DNA of 24,000 nucleotides from an uncultured bacterium (GCA_963827625.1 CAWHBS010000003.1:806306-830305); one strand, 5' to 3'; shown: positions 12,765-16,319, numbered from the stretch's first letter. Numbers and translations: made by a program. The notes: generated by a model from the letters alone, not told the origin.

Positions 12765-12801
12765 TTGACTTTGCGTCATAAGTACACTATCATGATAGTG
12801 T
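12765..12801 (+). promoter_or_regulatory. Sigma70-like promoter (TTGACT-17 nt-TATCAT) overlapped by a perfect 18-bp palindromic operator
   Basis: TTGACT lies at 12765-12770 and TATCAT at 12788-12793. The palindrome ACACTATCATGATAGTGT lies at 12784-12801. The region is AT-rich in a GC-rich background, 25 nt upstream of the J-domain gene ATG. Confidence 0.5.
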
Positions 12802-12825
12802 TATCGTGACACAAAGCGAGGCGCT

Positions 12826-13902
12826 ATGGCCGAGACAGTCTTGGATCCGTTCGACCTATTACGCCGGGCAATCTGCCCCGAGGACGTTTTTGGCCTTCTG
12901 GTTGCCGATACGCAGGACACCCTCAAGCAGCGGTATCGGGAGCTCGCAGCGGTTGTGCACCCGGACCATAACGCGGATCGGCGCCAGGAGGCGACTGAGG
13001 CATTTCACGCACTTCAGCATTGGTACGGCGCCGCCCAGGAGCAGCTGCGGCGGGGCAGTGATGCTGCGCCGCCACGCATCACTGCCGCCTCTCGGCTGCA
13101 CACGTATCGCGGCTATGCACCACCCCTCACGGGTGACCTGAGTGACCTGTTTCCAGTCCAGCTCGACAGCAGCCGCGTGCTGCTCAAGGTTGCGCGTCTT
13201 GCCCGCGACAACGACCTGCTCCACGCAGAAGCCCGGACGCTGCAACGCCTCGATCGCGTGCTGCAGGGCCAGGCGGTGCGCGCGCACTTTCCCACTCTCG
13301 TCGAAGACTTCCTGCTCGCCGACGTGACGGGCAGCCGGCGGCAGGTTAACGTGCTGAGCGAGGAGGTCAGCTGTGTCTCACTGATGGACGTGATCAGGGC
13401 CTATCCTGCCGGCATCGCGTCGGGCGACGCCGCCTGGATGTTCAACCGCATGCTCGCCGTGCTGGGCGTGACGCATAATCTCGGCATTGTGCACGGAGCG
13501 CTGGTCCCGACGCACGTTCTGATCCGGCCTGGCGACCACAACGGGATGCTCGTCGACTGGTGCTACAGCGTCCCGGCCGGCGAGTCGCTGAAGGCCATCA
13601 GTCCGCAATTTGCCGACTTCTACCCACCGGAGGTACTCGAACGGCGGCCCGCCACCACCGCGACCGACCTGTATATGGCTGCGCGCTGCATGGTGCGGCT
13701 GCTGGGCGGCACGCGGGGCACGCGCGACCTGCCCGCCGGCGTGCCGCGCCCGATGCGTGCCCTGCTCGACGCCTGCCTGATCCCGGCGCCCGCGCGACGG
13801 CCTGACGACGCCTGGCAGGTTCTCGATGATTTTCGGGAGATCCTCGCACGGCTGCACGGACCAGCGGTATTCCGGCCGTTCCACATGCCCGCGCCGGCCT
13901 AG
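12826..13902 (+). CDS. J-domain (DnaJ-like, HPD motif) protein fused to a protein-kinase-like fold lacking the catalytic Asp (pseudokinase)
   Basis: The J-domain reads LKQRYRELAAVVHPDHN ... EATEAFHALQHWYG, with HPD at 12958-12966. Kinase-fold landmarks are VLLKVAR (VAIK-like Lys), HAEARTL (alpha-C Glu), HGALVPTH in place of HRDxKxxN (HGA at 13492-13500), DWC in place of DFG, PPE in place of APE, and the TDLYMAARC and ARRPDD subdomains. Confidence 0.85.
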   Translation: MAETVLDPFDLLRRAICPEDVFGLLVADTQDTLKQRYRELAAVVHPDHNADRRQEATEAFHALQHWYGAAQEQLRRGSDAAPPRITAASRLHTYRGYAPPLTGDLSDLFPVQLDSSRVLLKVARLARDNDLLHAEARTLQRLDRVLQGQAVRAHFPTLVEDFLLADVTGSRRQVNVLSEEVSCVSLMDVIRAYPAGIASGDAAWMFNRMLAVLGVTHNLGIVHGALVPTHVLIRPGDHNGMLVDWCYSVPAGESLKAISPQFADFYPPEVLERRPATTATDLYMAARCMVRLLGGTRGTRDLPAGVPRPMRALLDACLIPAPARRPDDAWQVLDDFREILARLHGPAVFRPFHMPAPA

Positions 13903-13947
13903 GCTCGCCGGCGCTTCACTATCAACACTTAGTAATGGAGATCAGTC

Positions 13948-14937
13948 ATGGGACACTCAAACTGGAGCGACGCCGCCTACCAGGCGCGCCAGCAGCACCG
14001 CCGCGCCACCGGCCAGACCGCCTTCAGCTACGACGACCAGGTGCGGACTACGGGTGTGGTCCGAGTCCACGACAAGCTGAATCCGCGCGGTGTGACGCGC
14101 GAGAGCCGGGACAGCAATCAGCACCCGGCGTCCCTCGCGATCGCCGTGATCTTCGACGTCACGGTTCGATGGGCAGCGTGCCCCGCGTGTTGCAGACCAA
14201 GCTGGGCGCGCTGATGCGGGTGCTTGATCCAGCACGGCTACGTCGCGGACCCGCAGCTCCTGTTTGGCGCGATCGGCGACGCGAACTGTGACGCCGTGCC
14301 GCTGCAGATCGGCCAGTTCGAGTCCGGGCTTGAGATGGACGATGATCTGGGCAAGATCTACCTGGAAGGCGGCGGCGGCGGCCAGGTCCAAGAAACCTAC
14401 GAACTGGCGCTCTATTTCCTCGCTCGCCATACCGCGATCGACTGTTATGCGCAGCGTGGCAAGAAGGGGTACCTGTTCACGATCGGCGACGAGCAGCCAT
14501 ATGCTGTTGTGAGCCGCCAGCACGTTCGGGCGCACATCGGCGATGCGCTGGAGCGGGATATTCCGGTTCAGCAGATCATTGCAGAGGTGCAGCAGCGTTA
14601 CGAATACTTCCATATCATCCCGACTGACACCGCACATGGACGGAGCCAGGCCGTGCAGGCGCGCTGGAAGGAACTGCTGGGCGAGCGGGTGCTGCTGTTG
14701 CACGACGCCGCGGCCGTTTGCGAGACGATCGCCCTGGCGATCGGGCTGTGCGAAGGGTCGGTGGACGATCTTGCCGGCGGAGCCGACGATCTCCGCGACG
14801 CCGGCTATGGCAGCGCCGGCGTGGCAGCCGCCGCCACGGCGCTGGCTCACTACGGGGCAAGCCGCGCACCCGTGCTGCGGCTCGCCGCAGGGCTGTTGCC
14901 GGCGAGCACGGTGCAGGTCGCCGACGGACGGCTCTAG
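13948..14937 (+). pseudogene. von Willebrand factor A (vWA, MIDAS) domain protein; frame interrupted by a 1-nt deletion and a 1-nt insertion about 60 nt apart (true pseudogene or assembly error)
   Basis: ATG at 13948 lies 7 nt after GGAGA. Frame 1 reads ...LAIAVIFDVT and then hits TGA at 14212. The alternate frame from 14163 reads GSMGSVPRVLQTKLGALMRVL. Frame 1 resumes at 14227 with IQHGYVADPQLLFGAIGD. Joined, these give a canonical DxTGSMG MIDAS motif and a continuous vWA fold (YLFTIGDE). Confidence 0.75.
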
Positions 14938-14960
14938 GTGGGTCGAAAAAGGAGGCGACA

Positions 14961-16319
14961 ATGCACCAGGTCTTCCTGACGGTCGATCTCGGGTTTGGCG
15001 ACGCGGGGAAGGGCTCGATCGTCGATTTTCTCACCCGTGAACACGCGGCACATACGGTCGTGCGCTACAACGGTGGCGCGCAGGCCGGGCATCGCGTGGT
15101 GATCGGCGATCCTCTGCCGCGGGAGCACGTCTTCGCCCAGTTTGGCAGCGGCACACTCGCGGGCGCGGCGACCCACCTGAGCCGGTTCATGCTGGTGGAC
15201 CCGCTGGCGATGGTCGAGGAAGCGAAGCATCTCCGTGCGCTGGGCGTCGAGGCCTTTGAGCGCACAACCGTCGACGAGCGAGCGCTGGTGATCACCCCCT
15301 TTCAGCGCGCGATCAACCGGCTGAAGGAGCTTGCGAGGGGCGACCGCCGGCATGGGAGCTGTGGCATGGGTATCGGCGAGACGATGGCCGATTACCTGGC
15401 GCACGGTGAGCAGGTGCTCTTTGTTGGGGACTTCCGGCGCCCCGACGTGCTGCGGCGCAAGCTCGCGTTCCTTCGCGAGGTGAGCCTGGCCAAGACACGC
15501 AAGCTGCGTCTGCCCGACGGCGAAGCCGCGACACGCGAGCGGGAGCCGCTGTCGTCGGACGACTGGATCGCCTGGCTCGTCGACGCCTATGCTGCCTTCG
15601 CGCGGCAGGCGCGGATCGTGCCGGACGACTATCTGCATACGATCCTCGGGCAGCCGGGGACGGTCGTCTTCGAAGGGGCGCAGGGCGTGCTCCTGGATGA
15701 GTGGTATGGCTTTCACCCGCACACGACGTGGAGCTGCACGACCCTGGACAACGCCGACCGTCTGCTGGACGAGGCAGGCTATTCGGGCGACGTGACGCGC
15801 ATCGGCATCACGCGGGCATATGCCACGCGGCATGGTGCCGGGCCGCTGGTGACGGAGGATGCACAGCTGACCCGCGCGTTGCCGGACGCGCGGAACGGCA
15901 TGAGCGACTGGCAGCAGGGCTTCCGCGCGGGTTGGCTGGACCTGGTGTTGCTGAGATATGCGCTGGAGGTCACCGGCGGAGTGGATGCGCTGGCAGTGAC
16001 CTGCCTGGATCGGGTGGCGGAGCTGCCGGAGCTGAAGGTGTGCCGCCGCTATCGCCAGGGCAACCTGCTGCTGGATCGTATCGCGCGCTCGCCGGCGCCG
16101 CGCTCGCTCGCGTATCAGGAGCAGCTGACACGTAGACTCGCGGTGTGCCGGCCCGTGCTCGAGACGGTGGCGGATGCCGAGGCGCTGCCCAATCTGCTGG
16201 CGGCCGAGCTGGGGGTGCCGGTTGAGCTGGTGTCACGTGGTCCGACCGCCGAGGACAAGAGCTACATCGCCATGGCGATTGAACTCAACGCACCTCAACC
16301 GGCTCGACCAGCACATTAG
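14961..16319 (+). CDS. Divergent adenylosuccinate synthetase (PurA) family protein
   Basis: ATG at 14961 follows AAAGGAGG. PurA motifs are GDAGKGS (P-loop with Asp, codons 13-19), GGAQAGH (codons 38-44), GMGIGE, FEGAQGVLLD, AYATRHGAGP, GWLD, CLDRV and SRGP. The GATTGRRRR aspartate loop is replaced by NGMSDWQQGFRA. Confidence 0.9.
   Translation: MHQVFLTVDLGFGDAGKGSIVDFLTREHAAHTVVRYNGGAQAGHRVVIGDPLPREHVFAQFGSGTLAGAATHLSRFMLVDPLAMVEEAKHLRALGVEAFERTTVDERALVITPFQRAINRLKELARGDRRHGSCGMGIGETMADYLAHGEQVLFVGDFRRPDVLRRKLAFLREVSLAKTRKLRLPDGEAATREREPLSSDDWIAWLVDAYAAFARQARIVPDDYLHTILGQPGTVVFEGAQGVLLDEWYGFHPHTTWSCTTLDNADRLLDEAGYSGDVTRIGITRAYATRHGAGPLVTEDAQLTRALPDARNGMSDWQQGFRAGWLDLVLLRYALEVTGGVDALAVTCLDRVAELPELKVCRRYRQGNLLLDRIARSPAPRSLAYQEQLTRRLAVCRPVLETVADAEALPNLLAAELGVPVELVSRGPTAEDKSYIAMAIELNAPQPARPAH

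Follow-up and report, generated by a model that had tools for sequence, protein, structure and literature searches.

Several described systems resemble parts of the locus studied here. In CbbO-CbbQ, NorD-NorQ, ViaA-RavA and MoxR-vWA, a vWA/MIDAS protein is tied genetically both to its target enzyme and to a remodeler driven by ATP. The TerY-P triad consists of a vWA protein, a Ser/Thr kinase and a PP2C. The NAD+ reconstitution pathways NARP1, NARP2 and NARP3 are phage-borne and tied to ADP-ribose/NAD+, and a J domain and a protein-kinase fold share one chain in the DNAJB1-PRKACA (J-PKAc) chimera and GAK/auxilin. The transcriptional side has a counterpart in the NrtR regulon, in which the operator is a 21-bp palindrome with the core GT-N7-AC and NrtR is released by ADP-ribose; 'nrtX-nrtY' were given as unknown NrtR targets (PMC2330246).

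The locus is a three-gene operon in a 24,000-nucleotide stretch of DNA from an uncultured bacterium (GCA_963827625.1 CAWHBS010000003.1:806306-830305; hereafter, the window), and the three genes are designated g1, g2 and g3. The module resembles the vWA adaptor/ATPase pairs by analogy, as AAA+/MoxR-like genes are adjacent in some of its relatives, but the putative link to a remodeler is here a pseudokinase with a fused J domain for Hsp70 recruitment, and there is no AAA+ gene in the window. As in the TerY-P triad, a vWA protein stands beside a kinase-fold protein; however, the module has no PP2C or TerD, its kinase lacks the catalytic Asp and carries a J domain, and its third gene is a PurA paralog. 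It shares with NARP1–3 a phage-borne occurrence and a tie to ADP-ribose/NAD+, whereas those pathways use other enzymes entirely (Adps/Namat, Nampt/Nmnat and PnuC/NadR) and the module is known from its genes alone. The DNAJB1-PRKACA and GAK/auxilin proteins, unlike g1, are eukaryotic, active kinases of separate origin.

Organization and regulation of the operon

The genes g1 (12826–13902), g2 (13948–14937) and g3 (14961–16319) all lie on the plus strand with intergenic gaps of 45 and 23 nt, and each is preceded by its own Shine-Dalgarno-like sequence (GAGG, GGAG and AAAGGAGG, respectively). A single sigma-70-like promoter on the plus strand (12765–12793; -35 TTGACT at 12765–12770, 17-nt spacer, -10 TATCAT at 12788–12793) precedes the operon and matches the consensus at 10 of 12 positions; 2 such sites were seen versus 0.7 expected in shuffles. 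The VOC gene downstream has a separate promoter, TTGACA-17-TACCAT (16323–16351). The original prediction, made from the sequence alone, had described this arrangement of genes, gaps and promoters correctly, including the independent promoter of the VOC gene, and its domain calls for g1 and g3 also stood, but its intact g2 reading frame is not present in the window, as described below.

The "strong operator" of the same prediction is a pair of NrtR-type boxes. Box 1 (TTGCGT-CATAAGT-ACACTA, 12771–12789) lies between -35 and -10 and has 2 mismatches to TAGTGT-N7-ACACTA, and box 2 (TAGTGT-TATCGTG-ACACAA, 12796–12814) has 1 mismatch; a perfect palindrome, ACACTATCATGATAGTGT (12784–12801), is formed at the junction of the two boxes and overlaps the -10 element. 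Within 350 bp upstream of the module, at least one TAGTGT-N7-ACACTA box was found in 62 of 75 species-level loci and two boxes in 58 of 75, with the tandem boxes spaced 23–26 bp apart and a background box density of 0.026 per kb. The upstream boxes fit the published NrtR operator core (PMC2330246). The presence of two tandem NrtR-type boxes upstream of the module is a new observation of the present analysis.

An nrtR gene adjoins the module in Bacteroidota, Saccharibacteria, Reyranellaceae and Allorhizobium, and in phyla other than Chloroflexota nrtR and NAD genes (nadA, nadE, pncA and pncB) lie beside the module and are preceded by the same box. In the Saccharibacteria locus L072, where nrtR is present, the same box precedes nadB-like/nadA, g2-g3 and pncA-pncB, and nadE-nadD lie directly 3' of g3. 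The Saccharibacteria cluster already contains a complete canonical NAD gene set, indicating that the module fills no obvious pathway gap. In Rhodococcus/Tsukamurella plasmids, g3 is followed by a NUDIX-domain gene of similar size, in which the match to the NrtR wing-helix is weak or absent. No nrtR gene was found in the window or adjoining the module in any Chloroflexota locus, so that the binding factor in this phylum is predicted from the motif alone.

Taken with the nrtR and NAD biosynthesis or salvage neighbours in other phyla, the NrtR-type boxes indicate a link to NAD+/ADP-ribose homeostasis, and the membership of the operon in an NAD+ homeostasis regulon through these predicted boxes is strongly supported. 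As in the NrtR regulon (PMC2330246), the palindromic operator lies over the promoter, nrtR is adjacent in several phyla, and the box before nadA, pncA and pncB is the same as that before the module; however, no known NAD enzyme is encoded by the module.

Properties of the three gene products

The g1 product (358 aa) has a J domain at about residues 8–75 (HPD at 45–47) and a protein-kinase-fold pseudokinase region at about residues 85–345. The Pfam DnaJ model scored above its cut-off (31.1 bits; cut-off, 27.8) and the Pkinase model below (24.8 bits; cut-off, 31.7). In the AlphaFold model (pLDDT 86.7), a J domain (helices 8–75) is followed by a protein-kinase fold, which matched kinases with a Foldseek E of 1e-11, and the DNAJB1-PRKACA chimera was among the top structural matches spanning both domains. 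H45, P46 and D47 of the HPD motif are invariant across 31 sequences. In the relatives of g1, K121 and E135 are invariant and D244 (DWC motif) is conserved in at least 90%, but the catalytic loop is HGA, not HRD (H223 in at least 90%, G224-A225 invariant), and the catalytic Asp is absent. Because this Asp is missing, g1 should be a pseudokinase or have a non-canonical activity. The DnaJ score, the model and the HGA loop thus bear out the predicted fusion of a J domain with a kinase fold that has a dead catalytic loop. In PHROGs, g1 matched phrog_3043 (1e-49), and in PADLOC-DB v2 it gave generic kinase-domain matches only.

In the window, g2 is disrupted. As assembled, it runs in frame 1 to about 14162, in frame 3 to about 14222 and then again in frame 1, with a TGA stop at 14212–14214; the lesions are a 1-nt deletion at about 14162 and a 1-nt insertion at about 14222. 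With both indels undone, the product is 329 aa and is 70–90% identical end to end to intact homologs. In the 97.8% identical strain L087, g2 is intact, and the two g2 indels are the only indels between the two assemblies over 12700–16400. The original prediction had overlooked this break in g2, because of which the operon of this strain may not work.

Pfam VWA models gave no match to g2 at E values up to 1. The predicted structure of g2 is of moderate confidence (pLDDT 65, pTM 0.71), and its best PDB matches by Foldseek were integrin I, beta-I and other vWA domains (probability 1.0, E = 1e-4). The MIDAS-like residues D70, T72 and S74 (DVTGS; DxTxS) and T178...D181 (FTIGDE), compared in sequence with DxSxS...T...D, are invariant. 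A vWA fold is assigned to g2 from this modest model together with these motifs, and on the same grounds the earlier vWA call appears correct. The protein also has a conserved insertion (GLEMDDDL...EGGGGGQ) and matches phrog_2971 in PHROGs (1e-69), and in the protein library its family falls into about 2,000 clusters when grouped at 50% identity. The presence of g1 is correlated with a C-terminal ...DGRL tail on g2 (44/17 versus 7/25; Fisher P = 6.5e-6, with the kinship of the loci ignored).

The g3 product is a 452-aa PurA-family paralog and a predicted GTP-dependent ligase. Public sources name its family adenylosuccinate synthetase, and it scored 212 bits against PF00709, but it fell below every NCBIfam purA cut-off, including those of the equivalogs NF002223 (171 bits; cut-off, 402) and TIGR00184 (139.5 bits; cut-off, 395). 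Against the PurZ model NF038379 it scored 32.9 bits (cut-off, 300). The retained residues (E. coli numbering) are D13, K16, H41, Q224, T239, R306, D333 and S414, and 73 of the 75 members of the g3 clade have D13, K16 and H41. At the aspartate-loop positions T300, T301, R303 and R305, the window has D, W, Q and F, respectively, which bears out the predicted loss of the aspartate-binding loop. The substitutions T301W and R305F are near-invariant in the clade, which also shows N38Q, T128S, T129C, R131 to M/V/I, R143 to H/Y/F, S240W, V273H, G302Q and K331C. Among the contacts to the IMP 5'-phosphate, only T239 is kept, and N38, T129 and R143 are changed (to Q38, C129 and H/Y/F143).

Compared with PurA (EC 6.3.4.4; PF00709), g3 therefore keeps the fold, the P-loop GDxGKG and D13, H41, Q224, T239 and D333 (guanine recognition), but it differs in the aspartate loop and the IMP phosphate contacts, lies under the equivalog cut-offs, co-exists with a canonical purA and is always paired with a vWA protein. 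The co-existence is seen on the 9.7-kb contig L020 of a relative, which carries the trio, a canonical purA (533 bits; cut-off, 402) and purB, and this supports the earlier view that g3 is unlikely to be the housekeeping purA. In a single case, a g3 relative is fused to a Peptidase_S51 domain.

Conservation and phage-borne copies

The operon in the window represents a conserved, mobile and so far uncharacterised module, of which g2 and g3 form the core and g1 is a frequent accessory. These are the only genes conserved over 85 loci from several phyla, and the flanking genes vary. Conserved co-localisation had been set beforehand as a test of the prediction, and the trio was found in the same order in Chloroflexota, Bacteroidota, Patescibacteria, Myxococcota, Proteobacteria and actinobacterial megaplasmids. 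This gene order occurs in about 55 of 80 species-level loci, and g2 and g3 are adjacent in nearly all. Identity among the loci is highest for g2 (65–75%), followed by g3 (55–70%) and g1 (46–64%). About a third of the loci lack g1 and have g2-g3 alone, indicating that g1 is dispensable, which the original prediction had missed. In L072 and L077, an AAA ATPase lies between two g2 paralogs, and in L212 the trio is followed by AAA_5 and DUF5682.

The distribution of the module is patchy over phyla, with some copies on megaplasmids, and its flanks contain varied housekeeping or ordinary metabolic genes and no defence islands. One Herpetosiphonaceae locus adjoins purine-salvage genes (uricase, a Bmp transporter, adenine deaminase and a gene of the purine nucleoside phosphorylase family). 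PADLOC-DB v2 gave no matches for g2 or g3, and literature searches found no description of the module, the nrtX-nrtY of PMC2330246 lying outside this comparison; the claim that no named system fits was thus upheld.

Three unrelated groups of phages, lytic or large, also carry the g2-g3 pair. Mycobacterium Bixzunavirus carries the whole trio, and Vibrio Va1-like phages and Rhizobium Kleczkowskaviridae carry the pair. A gene with the annotation NMN adenylyltransferase/NUDIX protein is located close to the pair in a Rhizobium phage, and a Bixzunavirus also has a PnuC-like gene. No NrtR-type boxes were found at the phage copies. The phage homologs of g3 are named "2-aminooxy adenylosuccinate synthetase" by PHROGs and phage annotators.

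Possible function of the module

We propose, at what we judge to be an even chance, that the module comprises an NAD-linked nucleotide ligase, derepressed by ADP-ribose, together with an adaptor of the vWA type and a protein that recruits a chaperone. As the two tandem boxes overlap the promoter, a predicted NrtR would repress the operon until it is released by ADP-ribose, a product of NAD+ cleavage. Given that g3 keeps the P-loop, D13 as base, H41 as acid and D333, which specifies guanine, it should still transfer a phosphate from GTP to an oxygen of its substrate. The aspartate pocket is now aromatic (W301, F305, W240 and H273) and three of the four IMP phosphate contacts are changed, indicating that the nucleophile is not aspartate and that the acceptor is probably not plain IMP. 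The acceptor may be a nucleotide from the NAD/ADP-ribose pool, although the pocket changes do not single out a ligand. By analogy with the vWA adaptors CbbO, NorD and ViaA, g2 would hold g3 or a client through its metal-ion site, and g1 might use its J domain to recruit DnaK, which would then remodel or activate the complex; where g1 is missing, the cluster contains AAA+ ATPases instead. Large phages may carry the module to sustain the supply of NAD+ and adenine nucleotides during infection.

We consider it rather unlikely that g3 instead regenerates AMP (or ATP) independently of aspartate by direct amination of IMP or a different inosine nucleotide, with ammonia or some other amine as the donor. 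Such a reaction would replenish the adenylates required for NAD+ resynthesis or undo the deamination of adenine. The retention of D13, H41, Q224, T239 and D333 leaves room for a 6-oxopurine acceptor, and the purine-salvage genes of the Herpetosiphonaceae locus would suit such a reaction, as would the fusion to Peptidase_S51, which has a glutamine-amidotransferase-like fold. However, that fusion is a single case and no ammonia-generating subunit is conserved, the 5'-phosphate contacts N38, T129 and R143 are all changed, and amination leaves the obligate vWA partner unexplained.

A similarly low probability is given to the interpretation offered by the original prediction, in which the vWA protein and the pseudokinase form a sensor/scaffold that is remodelled by DnaK and coupled to an enzyme whose product, a non-canonical purine nucleotide, would serve in stress signalling, nucleotide depletion or anti-phage defence. 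The patchy distribution, variable flanks and megaplasmid copies are typical of accessory or conflict systems, and g1 has a fold-level likeness to kinases of the Mokosh, MADS and PD-T4-6 defence systems. Moreover, predicted conflict systems with vWA chaperones also employ a Nudix regulator that senses ADP-ribose (PMC9503650). On the other hand, g2 and g3 had no PADLOC match, no effector (nuclease, NADase or pore) is linked to the module, and PP2C, TerD and MoxR are absent from the window, PP2C also from the conserved neighbourhood. The ordinary metabolic neighbours, the embedding among NAD biosynthesis genes with the same operator and the carriage of the module by lytic or large phages themselves indicate that anti-phage defence or a Ter-like stress role is not the best frame, although the domain calls, the aspartate-site loss, the distinction from purA, the co-localisation and the lack of a named system on which that interpretation was built all held.

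It is very improbable that g3 is a PurZ-like enzyme making a modified deoxynucleotide (e.g. 2-aminoadenine) for DNA modification, as the name given to its phage homologs would imply, because its score is far from the PurZ cut-off, PurZ uses aspartate and g3 has lost the aspartate site, and the copies in bacteria lie on chromosomes and share their regulation with NAD genes. That g3 is the organism's housekeeping purA with coincidental neighbours, as its public name and PF00709 score would have it, is essentially refuted by the sub-cut-off equivalog scores, the clade-wide replacement of the aspartate-binding residues, the canonical purA and purB on L020 and the conserved linkage to g2 across phyla.

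The NAD-linked ligase that we favour could, in a more specific and doubtful form, make the g2-g3 pair, aided by g1/DnaK, a previously unknown system for rebuilding or repairing NAD+, i.e. a "fourth" reconstitution route. In that case, g3 would first phosphorylate, at the expense of GTP, an oxygen of a dinucleotide that contains ADP-ribose or hypoxanthine, and the intermediate would then be coupled to a ring nitrogen or an amine, such as nicotinamide, in the new aromatic pocket. If so, bacteria would induce the module through NrtR when ADP-ribose accumulates, and for large phages it would be a means to overcome immunity that works by NAD+ depletion.

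Operon structure and the g2 reading frame

The trio lies on the plus strand of the window at 12826-13902 (g1, the J-domain pseudokinase), 13948-14937 (g2, the vWA-fold protein) and 14961-16319 (g3, the PurA-family paralog), with intergenic gaps of 45 nt (g1-g2) and 23 nt (g2-g3) and a Shine-Dalgarno-like sequence preceding each gene. The operon promoter is a sigma-70-like TTGACT-17-TATCAT at 12765-12793, and a separate promoter, TTGACA-17-TACCAT at 16323-16351, serves the VOC/glyoxalase gene downstream. These coordinates and motifs agreed with the original prediction of three packed genes, each with its own Shine-Dalgarno sequence, behind one promoter and apart from that of the VOC gene; the operon structure is established.

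The original prediction had missed a frame disruption of g2 in the window. As assembled, g2 leaves frame 1 at about 14162, where a 1-nt deletion changes ACGGGT to ACGGT, and returns to it at about 14222 through a 1-nt insertion 60 nt from the deletion. Together, the two indels (region 14155-14230) disrupt the MIDAS motif and introduce a TGA stop between them at 14212-14214. Repair by addition of one G and removal of one base gave a 329-aa protein that aligned end to end with intact homologs at 70-90% identity. In L087, a strain with 97.8% identity to the window over 21 kb, g2 is intact, and the only indels between the window and that assembly across 12700-16400 were the two single-base ones in g2. 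Judged from these alignments, they would represent either an assembly error or a recent inactivation. Because the g2 family is intact elsewhere, the repaired g2 was used for analysis. Unrelated to the operon, a 1,500-aa ORF with a signal-peptide-like N-terminus occupies the minus strand of the window at 18609-23111; the counterpart of this region in L087 is split into several short genes.

Conservation and distribution of the module

A g2 profile scan with one genome per species yielded 80 loci. By tblastn, g2 and g3 were adjacent in nearly all of the 80 loci, establishing them as an obligate pair, and the order g1-g2-g3 was found in about 55. The module occurs in Chloroflexota (several orders), Bacteroidota, Patescibacteria (WWE3, Saccharibacteria and Yanofskybacteria), Myxococcota, Gammaproteobacteria and Alphaproteobacteria, and also on megaplasmids of Rhodococcus, Tsukamurella, Agrobacterium/Allorhizobium and others. 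When the flanking ORFs of the loci were clustered, g1, g2 and g3 were the sole conserved genes; the conserved co-localisation that the original prediction had put up for checking thus held for the trio alone, across several phyla. The GHMP kinase upstream of g2 in Herpetosiphonaceae was a mevalonate kinase and was set aside as an unrelated neighbour.

In the Myxococcota loci (L078-L081 and L083), a g1-like gene and g3 are surrounded by two or three g2 paralogs, of which one lies divergently on the other strand. The g1-like protein aligned to the window g1 only from about residue 83-118 onward, the kinase part, and its J domain may be absent. In the Allorhizobium plasmid pAtS4e (L212, 7408-10801), genes for an AAA_5 (MoxR-like) ATPase and a 776-aa DUF5682 protein come right after the trio, and a type VI secretion VgrG gene lies nearby.

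Homologs of g2 were also present in about 219 phage records from Mycobacterium Bixzunavirus, Vibrio Va1-like phages and Rhizobium Kleczkowskaviridae. In the Bixzunavirus (cluster C1) phage Cali, for example, the genes are gp251 ('kinase'), gp252 and gp254 ('PurA'). Because phages themselves carry the module, the anti-phage role proposed in the original prediction is unlikely, and PADLOC, searched for known defence systems, gave nothing specific for the trio.

An NrtR-type operator precedes the module

The palindrome ACACTATCATGATAGTGT upstream of g1 recurs in 41 loci, in each of them immediately before the first gene of the module and at no other position. Its half-sites, ACACTAT/TAGTGT, resemble the NrdR box. 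An NrdR operator was nevertheless rejected as improbable, since the junction palindrome measures 18-19 bp, not 16 bp, and the NrtR-core register TAGTGT-N7-ACACTA fits every locus. Read in that register, the site shows two tandem boxes 23-26 bp apart. At least one box lay within 350 bp upstream in 62 of the 75 species-level loci, with two boxes in 58; the background rate of the box was 0.026 per kb. In the window, the boxes at 12771-12789 and 12796-12814 straddle the -10 element, and conservation of the operator is established. NrtR operators are 21-bp palindromes with a conserved GT-N7-AC core, and ADP-ribose frees NrtR from DNA (Rodionov et al., PMC2330246).

Outside Chloroflexota, the module has an nrtR gene (NUDIX + NrtR_WHD) beside it in Bacteroidota, Saccharibacteria, Reyranellaceae and Allorhizobium. 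The NUDIX gene adjoining it in Rhodococcus and Tsukamurella had a weak NrtR_WHD match or none. Plasmid loci carry GT-N7-AC palindromes upstream of the module. Taken with fairly high confidence from these sequence features, the operon appears to belong to the NrtR/ADP-ribose regulon. Chloroflexota loci had no nrtR adjacent to the module, and their placement in the regulon is predicted from the motif. The unassigned NrtR targets 'nrtX-nrtY' of the 2008 NrtR paper (PMC2330246) may or may not be these module genes.

In Saccharibacteria, a genome-reduced lineage, the presence of an NAD supercluster (L072 and L077) is notable. In L072 (945-15975), which contains three NrtR boxes, the order is nrtR, a box, a nadB-like gene, nadA, a gene for a 216-aa unknown protein, a g2 paralog and an AAA ATPase gene, followed by a box, g2, g3 and directly then a nadE-nadD fusion, and finally a gene for a 310-aa protein, a box, pncA and pncB. 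The 310-aa protein, with a weak pyruvate-kinase-barrel match, is possibly NadC. In Rhizobium phage, the g2-g3 pair lies a few genes from an annotated bifunctional NMN adenylyltransferase/NUDIX gene, and one Bixzunavirus also has a PnuC-like gene. The gp011 product of Rhizobium phage RHph_Y65 (L089, 570-1424), annotated as 'phosphoribosyltransferase-like', matched Pfam PRTase_3 (ComF-like) at 157 bits and not the nicotinamide/nicotinate phosphoribosyltransferase family, so the NAD-salvage annotation of this phage needs to be read with care.

A metagenome regulon scan was run with the junction palindrome ACACTATAATN{1,2}TTAGTGT. Among the 80 loci listed, most were chance matches on AT-rich contigs with unrelated downstream genes, and only L106 and L118 were further module copies. 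On a 61% GC contig (L165), the junction palindrome occupies 42-60, 29 bp ahead of a HemN-like radical-SAM gene (89-1543); this gene may also be controlled by the same regulator, or the match may be due to chance.

Features of the three proteins

The g1 product scored 31.1 bits against the Pfam DnaJ model, above the cut-off of 27.8, and its Pkinase match fell just under the cut-off. AlphaFold, given 31 homologs, produced a confident model (pLDDT 86.7) in which a J domain at the N-terminus is followed by a protein-kinase fold. The model's best matches in the PDB were TNIK and AAK1, along with the human J-PKAc chimera, which matched over both domains. Homologs of g1 all share the HPD motif, K121 (the beta3 Lys) and E135 (the alphaC Glu), and nearly all share the DFG-equivalent Asp (D244); HGA replaces the catalytic HRD throughout. 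The J domain and the dead catalytic loop are established, and these residues suggest a pseudokinase that probably still binds nucleotide.

The g2 product matched no Pfam, NCBIfam or PADLOC model, and its predicted structure (pLDDT 65, pTM 0.71) was closest to integrin I, beta-I and other vWA domains. The motifs DVTGS and FTIGDE do not vary, and an insertion that is also strongly conserved, GLEMDDDL...EGGGGGQ, falls in a low-confidence region of the model. At 50% identity, the g2 family falls into about 2,000 clusters. When C-termini were compared across L006-L090, most g1-bearing loci ended in ...DDGRL-COOH, whereas loci lacking g1 had other endings, such as ...PDQIW or, in the presence of an AAA ATPase, ...EDWEM. 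Co-occurrence of the ...DGRL tail with g1 gave a Fisher P of 6.5e-6, phylogenetically uncorrected.

Some g2 homologs are about 580-594 aa long. One of them, P0386, contains a Hint/intein-like segment at about residues 173-250, near the conserved FTIGDE motif, and the two-piece alignment of Mycobacterium phage Blackbrain gp260 (L214, 20001-21785) to g2 suggests a similar insertion. A fusion-protein search (Rosetta-stone logic) found no g2-g3 or g1-g2 fusion; it gave intein-containing g2 genes and one g3-Peptidase_S51 fusion. An apparent g2-g3 fusion ORF in L085 was an ORF-calling artefact, the two genes being in different frames. The Peptidase_S51 case (P0115; L090, 2262-4358; Chloroflexota-like contig) is a single one, in which g3 is fused C-terminally to the peptidase domain (72.8 bits) and g1 and g2 still precede it; it could point to a partner that handles an amide or ammonia, or be a fusion artefact.

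The g3 product matched the PurA family at 212 bits, far under the purA equivalog cut-offs. Seventy-five clade members were aligned to E. coli PurA, a reference for which 18 of 18 literature residue numbers agreed. The clade keeps D13, K16, H41, Q224, T239, R306, D333 and S414 (E. coli numbering), and shows the clade-wide changes N38Q, T128S, T129C, R131 to M/V/I, R143 to H/Y/F, S240W, V273H, T301W, G302Q, R305F and K331C. This pattern indicates that the phosphotransfer machinery and guanine recognition were kept, that the aspartate site is gone and that the 5'-phosphate site is altered; retention of the catalytic core and loss of the aspartate site are established. On a 9.7-kb Anaerolineae contig (L020), the trio is followed about 3 kb downstream by a canonical purA (533 bits; cut-off 402) and then purB. 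A housekeeping purA was rejected on the sub-cut-off score, the replaced aspartate residues and this contig, as the original prediction had expected. The g3 protein belongs to the superfamily but fails the tests for PurA function. Nor is it PurZ, for which it scored 32.9 bits where the cut-off is 300.

Proposed mechanism and significance

We propose that g3 would consume GTP to activate an oxygen atom in a nucleotide drawn from the NAD/ADP-ribose pool and would then join the activated intermediate to a nitrogen nucleophile, other than aspartate, held in an aromatic pocket. The g2 protein would be a metal-site adaptor, of the type that tethers remodelling ATPases to target enzymes, and g1 would bring in DnaK as the remodeler. 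Where g1 is missing, AAA+ ATPase genes occur in the cluster (L072 and L077), and one also follows the trio in L212; both this and the co-occurrence of the ...DGRL tail with g1 fit a g1 that supplies the remodeler.

The trio differs from the TerY-P triad in having no PP2C and a dead kinase. The enzymes of the phage NAD+ reconstitution pathways NARP1, NARP2 and NARP3 also differ from those of the module; NARP3 consists of PnuC and NadR. A survey of NAD+/ADP-ribose systems in viruses did not mention PurA or adenylosuccinate synthetase, and literature searches for the trio, for PurA-like with vWA proteins and for NrtR with adenylosuccinate found nothing relevant. We regard the module as a genuine, conserved system that has no assigned function and belongs to a type yet to be described, and its ADP-ribose/NAD regulation is a new, testable handle.

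NAD+ depletion and reconstitution form a main front of the arms race between phages and bacteria, and all reconstitution routes known to us draw on classical NAD salvage enzymes. The module is tied to the ADP-ribose sensor NrtR although it contains none of these enzymes, and it is found in three large-phage groups as well as in at least six phyla of bacteria, the genome-reduced Patescibacteria among them. If the proposal is true, g3 would bring to the PurA family a chemistry new to it, GTP-dependent ligation in which the nucleophile is not aspartate. We know of no earlier case of a bacterial metabolic enzyme that relies on a vWA adaptor together with a J-domain pseudokinase, and g3 would be the first. 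The module may identify some of the NrtR targets left with 'unknown function' in 2008, and three conserved genes in hundreds of mycobacteriophage genomes gain a testable function.
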